NCBI GenBank assembly: GCA_014729135.1
Contig: WJKK01000001.1
Location: 455,599-519,598, forward strand
Direction: 5' to 3'
Length of the DNA: 64,000 nucleotides
DNA from: a candidate division WWE3 bacterium
GTDB taxonomy: Bacteria > Patescibacteriota > WWE3 > UBA101185 > UBA10185
Positions 39,110 through 61,831 of the stretch are shown here, in pieces. How positions within the stretch are numbered: the first letter of the stretch is position 1; every line of letters starts with the position of its first letter. A program made the translations under genes and the position numbers. Under the pieces are notes generated by a model, which was not told the origin of the DNA, did no database searches, and was given only the letters and a program-made list of their open reading frames with translations.

Positions 39110-39352
39110 CGTTTTTATGGGGAGGCATCTCTGCAGCGGATGTCTCCCTATCCTCTGGTTAGATTGTAAATCAAGGTAAACTTCAGATTTCATACATATT
39201 CGACCCGTATATAATGGCAAAATCCTCATCTAATAAAAAAGTGCCCGTTTTTGAGTCAGATTTGATCCCAAATTTGGAGTAAATATTCATTTCGAGCGAA
39301 GCGAAACTGAACGAAAAACGAGTACTCCGAAGACTTTCGGGTTTTTTCTGTG

Positions 39353-39381
39353 TTGACATTGGATACTCTATGGTGGAATAT
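39353..39381 (+). promoter_or_regulatory. candidate sigma70-type promoter for mraZ: TTGACA (39353-39358), 17 nt, GAATAT
   Basis: Consensus -35 with correct spacing to an A/T hexamer, ~70 nt upstream of the mraZ ATG. Preceded by a weak hairpin+U6 (39327-39347). Confidence 0.35.
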
Positions 39382-51939: not shown

Positions 51940-52055
51940 ATCTCAATTACGACTATTGCTGTTTATCTGGATATATTTTTTATGACTTGCATAAACTTAT
52001 CTTGGATTTTAGTATTGGTGTATATCAAATTATTTAGTAAAGGAAAGGGCAAATC

Positions 52056-53166
52056 ATGTTGAAGGATCCTAGAAATACAAATTTAGCTAAGGTGTTAGTT
52101 GAGCATTCCCTAGAGGTTGGTAAAGGTGATAATGTAGTTATTTCTACTTCCGATCTTTCCACCGGGTTGTTGGGTATTAAAGTATGATTCTGATGATTTT
52201 GGGGACAAAATTTTTGTACGAAGTAATGGGACTAAGGTTTATACTGCAAAAGATACCGCTTATCATCTTTGGAAGTTTGGCCTTTTGGGTAAGGACTTTT
52301 TATATAAATTATGGGATTCTGAATCCTTGACTCAGCCGACTTATCGGACTTCCCTGGAAGGTAAATCTTTCGATTCCTTCGGTAGTGCGGATATCATTGT
52401 TAACTTGATCGATGAACGTCAAACATATCCTCAAGAGATGGTTAAGCATGCCCTACATAGTTTGGGTTATGCAGAAGAGGCTGCGGAATATAATCACATA
52501 GCGTATGGAGTTGTTTCACTTTCAAAGGATACCGCGGAAGCTCTCGGAGTGGAAGTTTCGGATGACAAAGAAGTTTATGCTATGTCCGGTCGTAAGGGAA
52601 TCGGAGTAAAGGTTACCGATTTACTTGATTTATTGTGTAAGGAAATTTCGCAAATCCAGAGGAAATCCGGAGTTGATTTAACAGATCCAGATCTTGCCTC
52701 CTCTCAAGAGATAGCATTGGCAGCTATAAAGCACTATATGCTAAAAAATAATCCCTACACACCTATCTTGTTTGATTACAAGCAGGCGCTGAAATTAGTG
52801 GGGAATACAGGTCCTTACCTTCAGTATTCTCATGCACGTGCTTGCAGTATCTTAAAGAAATTTGAGCCCTTTGACACTAGTTGTACTAAGGGAGCGGAAC
52901 TTGCCTCAACTGAAGAGGCATTGTTAAAAGATTTGGAAAGTTGGCCTTTTATAGTAGGTCGTGTCTTGGAGGACTTCAACTTAGCCATTTTGTCGGAGTA
53001 TGCCTTTACTTTAGCGCAATCTTTCCACACGTTTTATGAGCATAACAATGTCTCTCAGTCAGAAGGTTCTGTTAAAAATTTTCGTCTAACCTTGATTCTG
53101 GCTTTTACTAAAGTTATGCAAGAGGTTTTGCAGGTTATGGGTATTTCTGCTCCTAAAAGGATGTAG
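52056..53166 (+). pseudogene. argS: chimeric gene remnant. The first ~29 codons (ATG 52056) look like an M29 aminopeptidase N-terminus and are fused in frame to the middle of arginine--tRNA ligase. A +1 frameshift (extra T at ~52258-52261) follows, then an intact 293-aa ArgRS C-terminal half. The HIGH region is absent.
   Basis: Frame 0: 'MLKDPRNTNLAKVLVEHSLEVGKGDNVVI' is AmpS/PepS-like. 'GCWVLKYDSDDFGDKIFVRSNGTKVYTAKDTA' is the ArgRS 'GALWFDL..FGD..V.RKSDGT.TY.TRDIAYH' block. Frame +1: 'YHLWKFG...', 'AMSGRKGIGVKVTDLLDL' and the DALR anticodon-binding 'GPYLQYSHARACSILKKF'. Only 340 nt separate the enolase stop from this block, so about 280 N-terminal ArgRS codons are missing. Confidence 0.6.
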
Positions 53167-53170
53167 TTTC

Positions 53171-54550
53171 TTACTCAATCACATAAGCAGCATAGTCTTG
53201 GCCTAGTTGAGTTTCTATAGTTGCAGTTTCCTCATCGCTTAATTCTTCAAAGTACTTTCTAAAACATCGAATAGAGTTTCCATGACAAGAAACTGCTACA
53301 TTAATCTGTTTTTCCTTCATTTCCTTAACGAGATCCTCTGCAAAAGCGCTAACACGTTTATAAACCATGCCAATGCTTTCTCCATGTGGGGGCTGTCCAT
53401 GATAAGTCCTTCTAATACGATGCAAAAACTCCGGATCCTTTTTATGCCACTCTAACTTACTTTGTCCCTGTAAATCACCATAGGAGCGCTCTTTAATACG
53501 TTCATCCTTTTCAATTTTTAAGTTCTTAGCGCTTTCATTTTTAGACATTGCAATTTTCATAGTTTGGAGTGCTCGCTTTTGCGGGGAAGATATTAGCTTA
53601 TCTATTTTTTTATCCTTTAACTTTTCTGCCAAAACTTCCGCCTGCTCTTCTCCTCTTTCTGTTATTGGAGCTGTTCTCCATCCGCTAAAGACGTATTTTT
53701 TATTGTCTACACTTTCACCATGCCTAAAAATATACAAAGTAGGTTTCTCATTGGATTCCTCTTTAGGCAGTTCATCTACCTCACGATACTCTAAACGAGC
53801 TTCTACTTCTGCTAATTCTTCCTTTGTTATTTCAGGAACCGGCTTATTCTTTAACTCTTTGTACTTTGCTAAAATCTCCGGATGATCTTTTTCATTTGGA
53901 ACTTCTTTCAACAGAGTTCCCTTCTCGCGCTTTCTATAAAAGTAGTAAAACCCTACGGCTAGGGCAGCTAAAAACAGTATTTCCATAATAGTAGAAGCAC
54001 TCTCAATCCCCTCAGATAACTGCTCGGAAGCAGCTAATCCCGTAAAGCCTAAATAAAGGAAAAACAAGTTTCTAACAATGCTTCCTAAAAAAGTTCCAAC
54101 AGCAAAAACTTTATAGTTTAATTTAATTAATCCGCAAACCACCGAAATAGGGGAGCTTGGCATAACAGGGATGCTTCTTAAAATTGTAAGAGTGGTGTAG
54201 TCTCTGGTGGTACCTTCAAAGCGGGAGCCAATTTTTTCTACATGTTTATGAGAGATTCCTAAGAACTTGCCAAATTTGCCAACGACTAAGTCTTCTCCCA
54301 AGTCAGCTAAAAAGTATAAAACGCTTGCACCTATGACTCTTCCAAAAGCGCCAAAAACTGCTACTACTCCTAAATACCAAAGAGCCTTTTGCTGCGCCTG
54401 CGCTATGCTTCCTGTGGCGGTCATTACAAAGGGGGAGGGGATTGGTGCAATAATCTCCTCGACAATTGTTCCTAGGACGCTAAAAAGTTCTAAGGGAATT
54501 GATCTTGCTAATGTTTCCAGATATGTGGTTATTTCAGTTATGAAATGCAT
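53171..54550 (-). CDS. fusion protein: DedA/SNARE-associated (TVP38-like) membrane domain + 2,3-bisphosphoglycerate-dependent phosphoglycerate mutase-like histidine phosphatase domain
   Basis: Residues 1-200 have DedA-like TM helices. Residues ~265-459: 'LYIFRHGESVDNKKYVFSGWRTAPITERGEEQA' (RHG catalytic motif; compare GpmA 'RHGESQWNKENRFTGW'), 'ERSYGDLQG' and 'HGNSIRCF'. Single uninterrupted frame with no internal Met/RBS. Confidence 0.7.
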   Translation of the reverse strand: MHFITEITTYLETLARSIPLELFSVLGTIVEEIIAPIPSPFVMTATGSIAQAQQKALWYLGVVAVFGAFGRVIGASVLYFLADLGEDLVVGKFGKFLGISHKHVEKIGSRFEGTTRDYTTLTILRSIPVMPSSPISVVCGLIKLNYKVFAVGTFLGSIVRNLFFLYLGFTGLAASEQLSEGIESASTIMEILFLAALAVGFYYFYRKREKGTLLKEVPNEKDHPEILAKYKELKNKPVPEITKEELAEVEARLEYREVDELPKEESNEKPTLYIFRHGESVDNKKYVFSGWRTAPITERGEEQAEVLAEKLKDKKIDKLISSPQKRALQTMKIAMSKNESAKNLKIEKDERIKERSYGDLQGQSKLEWHKKDPEFLHRIRRTYHGQPPHGESIGMVYKRVSAFAEDLVKEMKEKQINVAVSCHGNSIRCFRKYFEELSDEETATIETQLGQDYAAYVIE

Positions 54551-54601
54551 GTAATTAGCTTACATGAGGTTTTATGCAAAGCCAAGTTATTTCCGATCTT
54601 G

Positions 54602-55234
54602 TTATTTAGCGTATTTTCTTACAACTCCTGTGACCTTACCCTGAATTTGCAAGTCTTTAGCGTCAACAAAAATAGGATCCATCTTTGAATTTGCCGGTTG
54701 CAATCTAATTTGACCCTTACCTTCATTATAGTAGCTTTTAAGTGTTGCAAATCCGTTGTCAATAAGTGCCACAACAATATCTCCATCTTTTGCTGTGTTT
54801 TGCTGCTGAATAACAACGTAATCTCCATCAAAGATTCCCTGATCAATCATAGAATCTCCCTTTACTTGCAAAACATAACATCTTCGATTTTTAGAAACCA
54901 AATCAGCTGAAACCATTACAGTTTCCAGCGAGTTTTCAATAGCCTCAATTGGTTCTCCTGCGGCAATATAACCAACCAAAGGAAGTTCTATACCCTGTAA
55001 AGAAGTGTCAATAAGCTCCGTAATGATTTCAATTCCTCTAACTGCTCCATCGTAGCGCTTAATAAAACCTTTCTTTTCTAAAGCACTTAAATGTTCATGC
55101 ACTGTTGCTAGTGAGGAAAGCCCCATGGCATCAGCAATTTCTTGTAAAGTGGGAGAAGTATTATTCTTTTGAATAAACTGGGAAACGAAATTTAGTACTT
55201 GTTTTTGCCTTTTGTAAAGAGTTACGGGACTCAT
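54602..55234 (-). CDS. lexA: LexA repressor (S24 peptidase)
   Basis: wHTH N-terminus 'LQEIADAMGLSSLATVHEHLSALEKKGFI', catalytic 'GDSM' Ser and 'ATLKS' Lys. Confidence 0.9.
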   Translation of the reverse strand: MSPVTLYKRQKQVLNFVSQFIQKNNTSPTLQEIADAMGLSSLATVHEHLSALEKKGFIKRYDGAVRGIEIITELIDTSLQGIELPLVGYIAAGEPIEAIENSLETVMVSADLVSKNRRCYVLQVKGDSMIDQGIFDGDYVVIQQQNTAKDGDIVVALIDNGFATLKSYYNEGKGQIRLQPANSKMDPIFVDAKDLQIQGKVTGVVRKYAK

Positions 55235-55333
55235 TAGACCTCCTTTGTTAAATTGTTAAGTAATTCCCAAACTCATTTGTGACTTTGGGTTTTGTTTGTG
55301 TAAATTTAGTGTACCGAAAATTTTACGAAGGTG

Positions 55334-55939
55334 TCAAGAGTTTTGTTTTTTTAGGACATTTTCAAAGCTTATATTCAGATGTCGTTGTATAAAACGGATG
55401 TCCTCGGTATTGGTTGTTATTTGTCTGTGATTTGCAAAGTAGACTCTGGTTAAGTCTTTAATATCGTCCCTTATTCTTCTTTCTGTGGATTCGATCAGGG
55501 TTCTTAATGTTTTGTGATCTTGGAAGCGCTCGTCACTTGTTTTATAGTCAATCTCTTTAATTTCCTCCTTAAGATTTTTCTCCATGTTTTTCAGGTCATT
55601 TTCTACTTGTTTTAATTTATTTGCCAGCTTAGTCTGTTTTCCTTTAACTGACTTTAGGTCTGTTTTGACGCCTTTGATATCCGTTTTTAGGTCTGTTTTA
55701 ACGCCTATGATGTCCTCTTTTAAGTTTGCTTTAACGGCTTTGATATCCTCTTTCAGGTTTGTTTTAACACCTATGATATCCTCTTTTAGATCTGTTCTAA
55801 CGCTTTTGATATCCTCTTTTAACTCTTTTCTCAGAGCGTCAATCTTTGTGTTCAACTTAGTATCCAAGTCATTTATAAGGTTTGCTATTTCTTCAATTTG
55901 CATTACTTTAAATTTACCAAAACCCCCTAAACATGTCAA
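55334..55939 (-). CDS. hendecad (11-residue) repeat, K/D/E-rich coiled-coil/amphipathic-helix protein
   Basis: Six or more tandem 11-aa units 'VKTDLKEDIKG' (LKEDIKSVRTD / LKEDIIGVKTN / LKEDIKAVKAN ...). True start is probably Met13 (MQIEEIANL), directly behind TTGACA-17-TAAATT (leaderless). Confidence 0.6.
   Translation of the reverse strand: MTCLGGFGKFKVMQIEEIANLINDLDTKLNTKIDALRKELKEDIKSVRTDLKEDIIGVKTNLKEDIKAVKANLKEDIIGVKTDLKTDIKGVKTDLKSVKGKQTKLANKLKQVENDLKNMEKNLKEEIKEIDYKTSDERFQDHKTLRTLIESTERRIRDDIKDLTRVYFANHRQITTNTEDIRFIQRHLNISFENVLKKQNS
55625..55822. repeat. about six tandem 33-bp DNA repeats (e.g. GTCTGTTTTAACGCCTATGATGTCCTCTTTTAA) encoding the hendecad units
   Basis: Units phased at 55658, 55691, 55724, 55757 and 55790, with a degenerate unit at 55625. 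Confidence 0.75.
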
Positions 55940-56018
55940 TAGGAATTGTATTGTTTTAACAACAGCAATAAATCACATTAACAAATAAAACCCGAAAATA
56001 ATGTGCTAAAATCTGCAT

Positions 56019-58082
56019 GTGTTTAAGTTAATTTCAGACTACAAACCTACCGGTGATCAACCGCAAGCAATTAAGCAGCTTACAGAAGGTATCGAAAAAG
56101 GCAAAAAGCATCAGGTTCTTTTGGGTACTACAGGTAGCGGTAAAACTTATTCTGCTGCAAATGTTATAGCCAATGTAAACAAACCCACACTTGTGATTTC
56201 GCATAATAAAACCCTAGCAGCGCAACTTTATCAGGAATTTAGAGATTACTTTCCTGAAAATGCTGTTGAATATTTTGTAAGTTATTACGATTATTATCAG
56301 CCGGAAAGTTACATTCCTTCAACAGATACTTACATAGAAAAGGATGCAGATATAAATGAGGAAATTGACAAGTTGCGCCTTTCTACAACAACTTCTTTAA
56401 TGACGCGTGAGGATGTTATTGTTGTGGCTTCAGTTTCGTGTATTTATAACTTGGGATCTCCCGCAGAGTATTCAAAAATTGCTTTGGAGTTGCGGGAAGG
56501 TATGAAGCTTCGTATGACGGATTTGCTGACACGTTTAACGCAGCTTTTTTATGAAAGAAATGATGTTAACTTTACCCGCGGGGCTTTTAGAGTTAAGGGC
56601 GATGTAGTTGATGTTTTCCCGGCTTATCAGGATTACGCTACTCGTTTGGAAGTGTTTAACGACGTTTTAACTAAGGTTAGTTTTTTTGATCCTTTAACGG
56701 GAGAGATCTTGAATAAAAAGGGTCTTCCGGTTAAGCGTAAAGGAAGCGCCACTCGAAAAAACACTCAAGATGAAAAGGATTATGCAGATCATATGGCAGC
56801 TCAACCGGGTTTAGTTCTAATTTATCCCGCAAAGCACTATGTTGCTGCAGAGGAAAATCGCGAAGAGGCTTTTGAGCAAATCCAAAAAGATCTAAAGTCT
56901 CGTTTAAAGGTTTTGCGTCAGGCCGGCAAAGATTTGGAAGCCTATCGTTTAAAGCAAAAGACTGAATATGATCTGGAAATGATGCGCGAAATAGGTTATT
57001 GCAAAGGTATTGAAAATTACTCTCGTTACTTTGATGGACGTTCTCCGGGGGAAGCGCCTTATACTCTTCTGGACTTTTTTCCTGAGGACTATCTAACAAT
57101 AATAGACGAGTCTCACATAACGGTTCCGCAAATTAGAGGCATGCACAATGGTGATCGCTCTCGAAAGGAGACGCTTATTGATTACGGTTTTAGGCTTCCA
57201 TCTGCGCTAGATAATCGCCCCTTAAACTTTACGGAGTTTCAAAAGCGTATGAATCAAGTGATTTACACAAGTGCAACTCCGAAGGATTGGGAGATAAACA
57301 AGTCGCGTGGTCGTGTTATAGAGCAAATAATTCGCCCTACAGGAATTGTGGATCCGGAAATTCAGGTTTTACCCACGGAGAATCAGGTTCCTGATTTGTT
57401 GCAGCGTATTAAGGAGCGCATTGATCGAAAAGAGCGCGTTCTTGTTACAACTTTAACCAAAAAGATGGCGGAGGAGTTGGCAAATTACTTTATAGAAAAG
57501 GGTATTAAGGCCACTTATTTGCATTCTAATATTGATACTTTGGAGCGTACTGATATTTTGGATGATTTGCGCAAAGGTAAACATGACGTTTTAGTGGGGA
57601 TTAATTTGTTACGGGAAGGTCTGGATTTGCCTGAAGTTTCCCTAGTGGCAATTTTAGATGCTGATAAAGAAGGTTTTTTGCGATCTGAAGGCGCTTTAAT
57701 TCAGATTATGGGAAGGGCTGCTCGCCACATTTCAGGTGAGGTGGTTATGTATGCGGATAATATGACGGGAAGTATGCAACGTGCTATTGATGAGGTTAAT
57801 CGTCGTCGTGAGATTCAGCTAGCCTATAATGAGGAGCATAATATTACACCTCAGCAGATTGTTAAGCCTATTAGAGAGCGTTTAATTCAGCAGCTTTCCT
57901 CTGAGAAGGGGGATGAAGAGGCTGTTCTAAAGCAGGAGTTGTCGCAGCTGCCTCCGGATGAGTTAGAGGAGGAAAGAGCTCGTTTAGAAAAGCTTATGCA
58001 CTACGAAGCGGAGGTTTTAAACTTTGAGAAAGCTGCAGAGTATCGGGATCTCATTAGGAAAATCAACAAACTTATAGTATAA
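56019..58082 (+). CDS. uvrB: excinuclease ABC subunit B
   Basis: 'LLGTTGSGKT' Walker A, 'YYDYYQPE', helicase motifs and C-terminal UVR domain 'NFEKAAEYRDLI'. GTG start. Confidence 0.9.
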   Translation: MFKLISDYKPTGDQPQAIKQLTEGIEKGKKHQVLLGTTGSGKTYSAANVIANVNKPTLVISHNKTLAAQLYQEFRDYFPENAVEYFVSYYDYYQPESYIPSTDTYIEKDADINEEIDKLRLSTTTSLMTREDVIVVASVSCIYNLGSPAEYSKIALELREGMKLRMTDLLTRLTQLFYERNDVNFTRGAFRVKGDVVDVFPAYQDYATRLEVFNDVLTKVSFFDPLTGEILNKKGLPVKRKGSATRKNTQDEKDYADHMAAQPGLVLIYPAKHYVAAEENREEAFEQIQKDLKSRLKVLRQAGKDLEAYRLKQKTEYDLEMMREIGYCKGIENYSRYFDGRSPGEAPYTLLDFFPEDYLTIIDESHITVPQIRGMHNGDRSRKETLIDYGFRLPSALDNRPLNFTEFQKRMNQVIYTSATPKDWEINKSRGRVIEQIIRPTGIVDPEIQVLPTENQVPDLLQRIKERIDRKERVLVTTLTKKMAEELANYFIEKGIKATYLHSNIDTLERTDILDDLRKGKHDVLVGINLLREGLDLPEVSLVAILDADKEGFLRSEGALIQIMGRAARHISGEVVMYADNMTGSMQRAIDEVNRRREIQLAYNEEHNITPQQIVKPIRERLIQQLSSEKGDEEAVLKQELSQLPPDELEEERARLEKLMHYEAEVLNFEKAAEYRDLIRKINKLIV

Positions 58083-61790: not shown

Positions 61791-61831
61791 ATGTTTGCAA
61801 ACCCGAAGAAATACCGTATAATTTTGACTTG

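Follow-up and report, generated by a model that had tools for sequence, protein, structure and literature searches.

A lineage-restricted, fast-evolving coiled-coil rod gene lies between uvrB and lexA in this WWE3 genome. We consider it probable that its product is a small rod protein, soluble and all-alpha, of an undescribed WWE3-subclade family, which is dispensable, constitutively expressed and serves as a self-associating spacer of variable length. In this lineage, a 33-bp unit would have been amplified in tandem, extending the rod to 5–7 hendecads, and the same kind of amplification, with a 21-bp heptad unit, may have acted on a sister member. The window, as referred to below, is the whole 64-kb stretch of DNA that was analysed.

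Locus layout, start codon and promoter

The minus-strand gene order given in a preliminary description of the locus was borne out. The repeat-protein ORF (maximal extent 55334–55939) is followed by lexA (54602–55234; TIGR00498, 212.4 bits; LexA_DNA_bind, PF01726, and Peptidase_S24, PF00717), and 3′ of lexA lies a gene for a fusion of DedA/VTT with a histidine phosphatase, His_Phos_1 (53171–54550; PF09335 over residues 37–168, PF00300 over residues 272–446). The uvrB gene (56019–58082, plus strand, GTG start at 56019) is divergent and shows 63–80% identity to other WWE3 loci by tblastn. As also proposed earlier, the repeat gene sits directly upstream of lexA on the same strand, and no terminator-like site was found between the two. 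An Rfam search over 54400–56300 matched no family.

The product had been taken to be a 201-residue protein starting at TTG 55939. This start was rejected: TTGACA at 55939–55934 is the −35 hexamer of the gene's own promoter (55911–55939, minus strand), which continues through a 17-nt spacer to an extended −10, TGgTAAATT, at 55919–55911. The likely start is ATG 55903, giving a coding sequence of 189 residues (55334–55903, minus strand, with the TGA stop at 55336–55334) that exactly matches the NCBI hypothetical protein GF360_02560. The divergent spacer shared with uvrB does exist, but because of this start its limits are 55904–56018 and not 55940–56018. The promoter is near-consensus and sigma-70-type (10 of 12 consensus matches, plus the TG), and the mRNA is probably leaderless, since the ATG lies only 7 nt downstream of the −10. 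The uvrB gene has a similar layout: its extended −10 (TGCTAAAAT, 56004–56012, plus strand) ends 6 nt before the GTG, and TGnTAnAAT stands 6–7 nt ahead of the uvrB start codon in nearly all of 24 WWE3 loci, so that uvrB mRNA appears to be leaderless across the lineage.

On the opposite strand of the repeat gene, a mirror ORF spans 55584–55988; it is broken in L003, one of the related genomes described below.

Hendecad array and predicted rod

Tandem Repeats Finder detected a 33-bp unit in 5.1 copies at 55653–55821 (82% matches, no indels, score 226); nowhere else in the window is there a tandem repeat. Around this core, the hendecad array extends over seven 33-bp rows at 55637–55867 on the minus strand. 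In the protein, five clean 11-residue units (V-K-T-D-L-K-E-D-I-K-G) occupy residues 24–78, with a degenerate unit before them (13–23) and a truncated one after (79–89). The array had been described as six or more units at 55625–55822; the repeats are real, but the count and limits are replaced by those given here. The hendecad periodicity itself was confirmed by Fourier analysis, in which the hydrophobicity power of the array was 90.6 at a period of 3.667 residues versus 0.3 at 3.5. Residues 91–118, beyond the array, peak at about 3.54 residues.

On a helical wheel, positions a/e/i (V/L, L and I) are followed in order by b/f (K/R) and then d/h (D/E/N). The hydrophobic stripe is thus narrow, confined to a/e/i or three of 11 positions, and is bordered by Lys along one side and by Asp along the opposite side. 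Position e is always Leu, yet its codon is TTA, CTA or CTG. Differences between units are spread evenly over the three codon positions (48/51/52), so the individual surface residues of the array would be under weak selection. We infer that the 11-residue repeats are a recent local expansion.

AlphaFold2 predicted a helix over residues 2–118, a break at 119–124 and a second helix over 125–188 (pLDDT 88.6). With a maximum Kyte–Doolittle 19-mer value of only 0.13, the protein has no transmembrane segment; it also contains no signal peptide, LysM domain or Pro. An 11-residue repeat, 3.67-residue periodicity and a continuous predicted helix, the characteristics by which a hendecad coiled coil is recognised, are all found in it. 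The amplified hendecads present a V/L-L-I stripe between a Lys flank and an Asp/Glu flank, and the rod may self-associate as a coiled coil that is either untwisted or has a slight right-handed twist, held together by this stripe and by inter-helix Lys–Asp salt bridges.

The WWE3 family and predicted LexA sites

Four other WWE3 genomes (L003, L085, L086 and L087) carry a diverged ortholog between uvrB and lexA, which answers a search for homologs beside lexA in relatives that had been suggested previously. With the window protein, these orthologs (P0019/L003, P0020/L085, P0021/L086 and P0022/L087) make up the family. In all five genomes, the gene lies on the lexA strand, has its own promoter and ends inside the −35 of lexA. 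The homologous promoters of the four orthologs read TTGACA-17-TATAAT or TAAAAT, then 6 nt, then ATG; the window gene, whose TGA also sits inside the lexA −35 hexamer, was assigned to the same pattern (TTGACA-17-TAnAAT, ATG 6–7 nt past the −10, TGA in the lexA −35). Its promoter, with flanks, aligns to that of L003. An ACAAT-ACAAT element just 5′ of the −35 (55945–55954, minus strand) is conserved at all five family loci, from which it was read off; it could function like an UP element or bind a regulator.

At the protein level, hhalign aligned the family with the window protein at a probability of 83% (E 8.9e-6; 88 columns, 31–118 onto residues 92–179), and a shuffle test with the array removed gave z = 8.1. 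A family profile search brings back exactly the five members. Plain BLASTP was not significant, and the N-terminal similarity is weak. We are moderately confident, on these alignments, that the window protein is homologous to the family outside the variable rod. Family dN/dS values of 0.10–0.28 (least saturated pair L003/L086: dS 0.83, dN 0.23) indicate that these are real proteins, and the chance of 189 stop-free codons at the local base composition is about 3.6e-6. By these measures, the repeat gene is real.

The family alignments show short conserved N- and C-terminal segments on either side of a central helical rod, the length of which differs freely between genomes (92, 143, 169, 189 and 194 aa). 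None of the four orthologs contains hendecads, and L087 has a heptad array instead (21-bp unit × 5.6); the 11-residue periodicity would therefore not be a conserved functional property. Length variation had been expected of the repeats between strains; among relatives, rod length does differ, and strains of Tissierella carry an analogous family whose copy number changes by exact 11-aa steps (133, 122 and 111 aa). The rod could thus serve as a variable-length spacer between conserved end segments, in the manner of a scaffold or adaptor.

The gene is present in few relatives. A tblastn search of 80 lexA loci with the repeat protein gave no match, and the commonest state of the uvrB–lexA spacer is an empty one of 81–225 bp, seen at 14 loci including that of the closest relative, L002. 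Nine WWE3 loci hold unrelated small ORFs in the spacer, and the one in L020 stands behind a duplicated lexA-type promoter with operator. Within each of the sister pairs window/L002 and L003/L001, one genome has the gene and its partner does not. In the empty spacers of L001, L002, L004 and L005, a search for gene remnants found none, the alignable sequence being limited to the promoters on either side. That sister genomes have lost the gene repeatedly suggests that it is dispensable.

The repeat gene had been placed at the head of the lexA transcription unit. A dependence of lexA on the promoter of this gene is not supported: lexA has its own promoter (55308–55337, minus strand: TTGACA at 55337–55332, an 18-nt spacer, TACACT at 55313–55308), which is conserved as TTGACA-18-TACACT in all 24 WWE3 loci examined plus L085–L087, and the spacer upstream of lexA is empty at 14 loci.

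For the LexA motif of Patescibacteria, the original study is reportedly that of Sanchez-Osuna et al., 2017, in Environ Microbiol. The one piece of outside support for the operator model below is a citing passage which states that LexA of Patescibacteria recognises a direct repeat (PMC7739468). We modelled the LexA operator from 44 conserved WWE3 sites as an 11-bp-phased direct repeat, TTYGG-N6-TTYGG, with a position-weight matrix on which the training sites score 12.6–23.6 bits. The best match in the window (TTCGGGTTTTATTTGTTA, 55979–55996, minus strand, 20.5 bits) is a putative operator on the uvrB promoter, and in WWE3 loci the motif is conserved at a distance of roughly 20 nt from the start of uvrB. 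The second best, candidate operator A (TTCGTAAAATTTTCGGTA, 55312–55329, minus strand, 19.0 bits), covers the spacer and −10 of the lexA promoter. The third, candidate operator B (TTTGGGTTTTGTTTGTGT, 55284–55301, plus strand, 14.7 bits), is inverted and lies at the start of the lexA leader; the candidate operators of lexA, B included, are conserved in relatives. Matches at 39336–39353, upstream of mraZ (10.9 bits), and at 61801–61818 (11.6 bits) were rejected as below the lowest training score. At the repeat-gene promoter the best score was 3.2 bits, the nearest predicted operator lying 76–93 nt upstream of the start; with 10-bp phasing or relaxed spacing, no site at any of the five family promoters exceeded 7 bits, which is within background. 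The earlier suggestion of SOS inducibility is not supported by this distribution, in which the three best sites of the window fall on the uvrB and lexA promoters; the case against SOS control holds only if the modelled operator is the true LexA site.

Transcription of the repeat gene would accordingly be constitutive and free of LexA control under this model. Read-through probably carries it as far as the lexA promoter, where it would be stopped by LexA bound at the two sites there, so that any co-transcription would contribute less to lexA than its own autoregulated promoter. From sequence we infer that the protein oligomerises, that the gene is expressed constitutively with a leaderless start, and that transcription reads through.

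That five genomes keep the gene beside lexA may point to a functional link; vertical inheritance by itself can account for the constant position. A link is assumed if the gene is read as a CPR-specific SOS effector, such as a checkpoint or division inhibitor, coupled to LexA via read-through or interference at the lexA promoter. In Gram-positives, non-homologous small genes beside lexA encode SOS-induced division inhibitors (PMC6851548), and the parallel with YneA, SosA, ChiZ and DivS favours such a role, as do the small size, fast evolution and unvarying lexA adjacency of the family and the other small ORFs in nine WWE3 spacers, that of L020 with its lexA-type promoter and operator among them. 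We nevertheless regard it as unlikely, because the gene is co-oriented with lexA and not divergent, its promoter has no predicted operator, its product has neither a transmembrane segment nor a LysM domain, repeated loss points to dispensability, and inheritance can explain its position. Slightly less likely still is the extended proposal that the uvrB–lexA spacer is a dedicated slot for small, fast-evolving effector genes next to the SOS operators and that the family is a CPR-specific DNA-damage checkpoint or division effector, whose transcripts, started at a leaderless promoter and crossing the lexA −35 and operators, would be gated by a LexA roadblock and feed back on lexA. Should the family prove to be linked to SOS, no effector of this kind would have been proposed for Patescibacteria before it.

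Similar proteins and known systems

Searches of curated families gave no above-threshold match to the repeat protein, and hits from NCBIfam and PADLOC (SMC, ZorA and LmuB) were discarded as coiled-coil noise. Foldseek returned zero matches in the PDB; the family profile found nothing below E 0.04 among PDB sequences, with ApoA-IV/ApoA-I weakly matched at E 0.04–0.1. The metagenome scan gave a single protein, L084, an unrelated high-GC coiled-coil protein, and a look-up of contigs by the exact protein sequence gave no entry.

Similarities were found to the widespread proteins built of xELKEDIxxVRT hendecads in phage and bacterial families (phrog_9415, Tissierella and Mariprofundus), and the array or the whole gene might have been acquired from a phage or bacterium by horizontal transfer. 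The phrog_9415 match reaches E 8.6e-12 but is partial (residues 14–96 on profile positions 57–137 of 168), 18 array-bearing proteins of unrelated phyla match at 37–51% identity, and hhalign with the Tissierella family gives a probability of 97.6% over residues 11–105. The matches, however, are confined to the array and the helix before it, covering at most 60% of the query. The C-terminal half (residues 85–189) found only itself when 1.84 billion representative proteins were searched with phmmer, yet aligns to the WWE3 positional orthologs, with which the gene also shares promoter, start and stop although they have no array. The Tissierella gene lies in an unrelated context, between smpB and argS, and a scan of viral contigs found no relative of the repeat protein. 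Units that are 82% identical at the DNA level fit local amplification. We therefore judge transfer to be quite improbable. The likeness to these uncharacterised proteins may be homology or convergence.

The preliminary description had suggested a possibly SOS-inducible, stress-protective protein with an amphipathic 3-11 helix, akin to LEA proteins, apolipoproteins or synucleins. On this reading, it would shield membranes or macromolecules under stress and be encoded by the first gene of a lexA operon. The 11-residue periodicity is real, Apolipoprotein (PF01442) is the top Pfam match (E 3.9e-8), and array windows score 0.58–1.37 on a HeliQuest-type discriminant, in the 'possible lipid-binding' range; the gene moreover adjoins lexA and uvrB with no terminator ahead of lexA, in a synteny kept in five genomes. 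The PF01442 match, however, reaches 33.7 bits where the Pfam gathering threshold is 90, and neither LEA (LEA_4) nor synuclein is among the 25 Pfam matches listed of 26 (E ≤1), all of them below cut-off. In a class-A lipid helix the apolar face is broad and bordered by basic residues on either side, and the 22-mers of apolipoproteins are punctuated by proline. The repeat protein has instead the a/e/i stripe only, Lys and Asp on opposite flanks, and no Pro. Its orthologs have no hendecads, one having heptads, the gene is missing from the closest relative and most WWE3 loci, lexA has its own conserved promoter, and operator-like sites are found at the uvrB and lexA promoters but not at that of the repeat gene. 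A protector of this kind is thus very unlikely.

Weakest of all, and highly improbable, is the view that the intergenic spacer has merely expanded and that its DNA repeat is overlain by an ORF which arose by chance or is in decay: orphan status, repeated loss, the even spread of inter-unit substitutions over codon positions and the mirror ORF would suit it, but the low family dN/dS, the promoter, start-codon spacing and stop position kept in five genomes, the invariant core residues with synonymously varying Leu codons, the rarity of such an ORF by chance, the antisense ORF broken in L003 and the lack of any Rfam match in the region all speak against it.

As a dispensable rod protein, the gene offers an example of orphan coiled-coil gene evolution in reduced CPR genomes, in which one small family varies in rod length via independent amplifications (33 bp and 21 bp) and differs in presence, by gain or loss, from one sister genome to the next. 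For annotation, the locus provides the true start, the leaderless layout and a warning against a LEA or apolipoprotein homolog label. The by-products may outweigh the gene itself: a clear candidate architecture of three direct-repeat LexA operators for WWE3, lineage-wide evidence of leaderless uvrB, and the uvrB–lexA spacer as a variable cargo site.

Hendecad (11/3) coiled coils occur, for example, in the tetrabrachion stalk and in stalk segments of trimeric autotransporters. The repeat protein resembles them in its 11-residue repeat, hydrophobics spaced 4-4-3, 3.67 periodicity and long predicted helix; it has no sequence relationship to them and is predicted to be soluble, cytoplasmic and unanchored, with three hydrophobic positions per unit. 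Its 11-residue periodicity and Lys/Glu/Asp-rich composition are also those of exchangeable apolipoproteins, group-3 LEA proteins and alpha-synuclein, and it matches PF01442 and ApoA-IV/ApoA-I weakly, but it differs in scoring far below cut-off, in its narrow stripe with oppositely charged flanks, in the absence of Pro and in having orthologs with no 11-mer. Weak profile matches over the array link it to CCDC90-like/DUF1640 (PF07798; 18.7 versus a cut-off of 33.5 bits) and DUF1664 (PF07889; 17.3 versus 34.6); it has no C-terminal transmembrane helix. YneA, SosA, ChiZ and DivS are likewise products of small, poorly conserved genes directly beside lexA (PMC6851548), but these genes are divergent and LexA-controlled and encode membrane-anchored proteins, whereas the repeat gene is co-oriented, has no predicted operator and encodes a soluble product. 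The xELKEDIxxVRT proteins of Tissierella, Mariprofundus and phrog_9415 have nearly the same hendecad unit and a similar preceding helix, but differ in their C-terminal parts and genomic contexts, and several of them are membrane-anchored at the C-terminus, as the repeat protein is not.

The repeat gene, its start and its neighbours

An 11-residue-repeat gene does lie upstream of lexA, and the preliminary description had both its 33-bp array and the gene order right. The maximal open reading frame (ORF) spans 55334–55939 on the minus strand and is followed there by lexA (54602–55234; TIGR00498, 212 bits; LexA_DNA_bind and Peptidase_S24) and by a DedA/VTT::histidine-phosphatase fusion as the third gene in the row (53171–54550), with uvrB (56019–58082) divergent from all three. 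Tandem Repeats Finder reported 5.1 copies of a 33-bp unit at 55653–55821 (82% matches, no indels), the sole tandem repeat across the 64-kb window. In the protein register, this gives five clean 11-residue units (hendecads; residues 24–78), with a degenerate unit before and a truncated unit after them.

The start codon had previously been placed at TTG 55939, giving 201 aa. This TTG instead opens a TTGACA hexamer; a 17-nt spacer and an extended −10 element (TGgTAAATT) come next, and ATG 55903 lies a further 7 nt on. The 189-aa product from this ATG is identical to the NCBI entry 'hypothetical protein GF360_02560 [candidate division WWE3 bacterium]'.

The ORF at 53171–54550 (minus strand, 459 aa) fuses DedA/VTT to a histidine-phosphatase (PGM-like) domain; in four other WWE3 loci (L009, L016, L024 and L028) DedA is encoded by a gene of its own, on the other strand. 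At 51940–53166 (plus strand), only a C-terminal arginyl-tRNA synthetase (ArgRS) fragment is open (293 aa, DALR domain), and the 345 bases 5' of it hold out-of-frame pieces, among them further ArgRS-like sequence and a peptide resembling an aminopeptidase (MLKDPRNTNLAKVLVEHSLEVGKGDNVV). The region could represent a pseudogene, a gene that is split, or a fault in the assembly.

WWE3 relatives and the uvrB–lexA spacer

A LexA-seeded scan yielded 24 WWE3 loci that include the uvrB–lexA junction (L001–L005, L007, L008, L010–L025 and L028; LexA identity 70–91%). The two genes are divergent neighbours in all 24, and tblastn of the repeat protein found no match in any of these loci. In 14 of them the spacer measures 81–225 bp and holds no ORF, while in nine (L007, L008, L010, L013, L015, L016, L017, L020 and L025) it extends to 349–1936 bp and contains unrelated small ORFs, including membrane peptides and a lipoprotein-like ORF. 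The spacer is a variable cargo site for unrelated small ORFs. Its contents include two membrane proteins in L008, a 52-aa membrane peptide in both L013 and L025, a 152-aa lipoprotein-like ORF in L016, a 357-aa gene in L015 and, in L020, an 83-aa ORF behind a duplicated lexA-type promoter with a candidate operator.

One locus of the 24, L003, carries a 143-aa coiled-coil ORF in the position and orientation of the repeat gene. Its promoter region can be aligned with that of the window (ACGATACAATATCTATTGACAT against ACAATACAATTCCTATTGACAT), TATAAT is followed by 6 nt and then ATG, and its stop codon is a TGA inside the lexA −35 hexamer, as in the window. Searches with this ORF, then with a four-sequence profile, added three further members: P0020 (locus L085), P0021 (L086) and P0022 (L087). 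Two results place the window protein in this family: hhalign aligned it with the family (probability 83%, E 8.9e-6, family columns 31–118 onto residues 92–179), and even without the array its pairwise score lay 8.1 SD over shuffles. Homologs next to lexA in relatives, which the preliminary description had proposed to look for, were found in L003, L086 and L087, with lexA immediately downstream in the latter two; uvrB upstream is also seen in L086, and L085 ends in the family promoter and the lexA promoter. An ACAAY..ACAAT element (TTGT..ACAA-like; window 55945–55954, minus strand) lies just 5' of the family-promoter −35 in five of five members and could serve as an UP element or as the site of a regulator.

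Family dN/dS values of 0.10–0.28 were obtained, and in the L003/L086 pair dS is 0.83 and dN 0.23, with lexA dN at ~0 in the same pair. By these comparisons, the members are real, fast-evolving proteins. The gene is present in one genome and absent from the other in two sister pairs, window/L002 (90.9% LexA and 80.5% UvrB identity) and L003/L001 (92.9% and 84.6%). At the empty sites, nothing but the promoter elements of uvrB and lexA on either side is retained, with no remnant of the gene, which shows that it has been lost (or gained) repeatedly and is dispensable.

The five members measure 92, 143, 169, 189 and 194 aa, and the difference is confined to the central rod. None of the other four contains hendecads. 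P0022 (194 aa) has its own 21-bp × 5.6 array (L087, 172–288); the heptads that it encodes (IEERLGK/VEERLGR...) sit centrally, just where the window protein has its hendecads. The 33-bp units of the window share 82% identity with one another. In the hendecads, Leu at position e is invariant and is encoded by TTA, CTA and CTG. The simplest reading of these sequences is local tandem amplification in a pre-existing rod, independent and with different unit lengths across lineages; the 11-residue periodicity would therefore belong to the insert of this lineage and not to the family. The window hendecads are a recent local expansion.

Promoters and a candidate LexA operator

The uvrB–lexA spacers of L001–L028 and the window contain up to three copies of a conserved direct repeat, TTYGG-N6-TTYGG(TA), with 11-bp phasing: one ~20 nt away from the start of uvrB, another within the spacer of the lexA promoter, and a third, inverted, just 3' of the lexA −10. 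A matrix derived from 44 different sites ranked the corresponding window sites first to third: 55979–55996 (minus strand, uvrB promoter, 20.5 bits), 55312–55329 (minus strand, lexA promoter spacer, 19.0 bits) and 55284–55301 (plus strand, lexA leader, inverted, 14.7 bits; operator B). The next match in the window reached 12.6 bits. Judged by sequence, this repeat is probably the WWE3 LexA operator; outside support is limited to a later paper (PMC7739468), which counts a Patescibacteria SOS study among the examples of LexA having evolved direct-repeat recognition.

The repeat gene had been proposed to head the lexA operon and possibly to be SOS-inducible, and neither proposal found support. Its promoter scores 3.2 bits on the putative operator matrix, the five family promoters reach 7 bits at most for an operator with 10-bp phasing, and the closest candidate operator lies 76–93 nt upstream of the start codon, so that direct LexA control is not predicted. 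At each WWE3 locus, lexA is served by a promoter of its own (TTGACA, 18-nt spacer, TAnnnT). The repeat gene ends in a stop codon within the lexA −35, and no terminator-like site was found between the two genes. Polymerases leaving the repeat gene would meet both candidate operators of lexA; transcription could continue into lexA and might be stopped by bound LexA.

For uvrB, a conserved extended −10 (TGnTAnAAT) stands 6–7 nt ahead of ATG or GTG in nearly all 24 WWE3 loci (window 56004–56021, plus strand). The uvrB mRNA appears to be leaderless, and such mRNAs appear normal in the lineage, which supports a leaderless reading of the repeat gene.

Two further features were observed in this region. 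A potential stem in the lexA leader (55266–55289, minus strand) pairs CCCAAA (55289–55284) with TTTGGG (55271–55266); both arms recur in L001–L005, L086 and L087 with differing loop lengths, and the 5' arm overlaps operator B. A 134-aa antisense ORF (55584–55988, plus strand) mirrors the array with hydrophobic FRSVLTP repeats, overlaps the promoter and operator, is broken in L003, and was judged an artefact of the repeat array.

Rod architecture and comparison with known systems

AlphaFold2 (single sequence) predicted helices at residues 2–118 and 125–188 with a break at 119–124 (mean pLDDT 88.6). The protein contains no proline and no hydrophobic segment (maximum Kyte–Doolittle 19-mer 0.13). 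The proposed eleven-residue periodicity was corroborated, with a hydrophobicity power in the array of 90.6 at period 3.667 versus 0.3 at 3.5; in residues 91–118 the period peaks near 3.54, which is heptad-like. On an 11/3 wheel, three positions (V/L, L, I) form an apolar stripe, flanked by b and f (Arg/Lys) on one side and by d and h (Asp/Glu/Asn) on the other. This is the layout that inter-helix salt bridges in coiled coils need, and it is unlike that of class-A lipid-binding helices, although the HeliQuest-type discriminant of 0.58–1.37 for the array would, taken alone, be compatible with lipid binding.

Along with this charge layout, membership tests spoke against the suggested LEA-like protectant. 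No curated family was reached at Pfam cut-offs: Apolipoprotein scored 33.7 bits (cut-off 90), CCDC90-like 18.7 (33.5) and DUF1664 17.3 (34.6), and neither LEA nor synuclein was among the listed Pfam matches. On these scores and the matches listed, apolipoprotein, LEA, synuclein and CCDC90-like identities were rejected.

No more than 18 proteins came out of a word-indexed search of 5.8 billion clusters; their sources are Tissierella, Mariprofundus and unnamed metagenome contigs. All align to the array and the preceding helix (at most 60% of the query) and share the unit xELKE[DE]Ixx[VR]T; the phage family phrog_9415 matches them and the window protein (E 8.6e-12 for the latter). The Tissierella gene (L081–L083) is flanked by smpB and argS, and lexA is not in its vicinity. 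The near-identical hendecad-repeat proteins P0006, P0008 and P0016, of Tissierella carlieri and relatives, measure 133, 122 and 111 aa, one 11-residue unit apart, a clear case of copy-number variation between strains. Tissierella-type arrays align with residues 11–105 of the window protein (hhalign 97.6%), a likeness that may reflect convergence or old homology. The C-terminal half (residues 85–189) returned only itself in an exhaustive search of 1.84 billion representatives.

The product of the repeat gene is a coiled-coil rod protein that is lineage-restricted, evolves fast and is dispensable. It would work like hendecad coiled coils, yet without sequence kinship to known ones, and our best-supported guess is that it may act as a self-associating spacer or scaffold. 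We think it quite improbable that it is a CPR effector coupled to the SOS response and placed in a variable slot. In Gram-positives, SOS division inhibitors are encoded next to lexA (PMC6851548); the repeat gene differs from these in orientation, operator and membrane anchor, and we regard the genomic analogy as a lead only.
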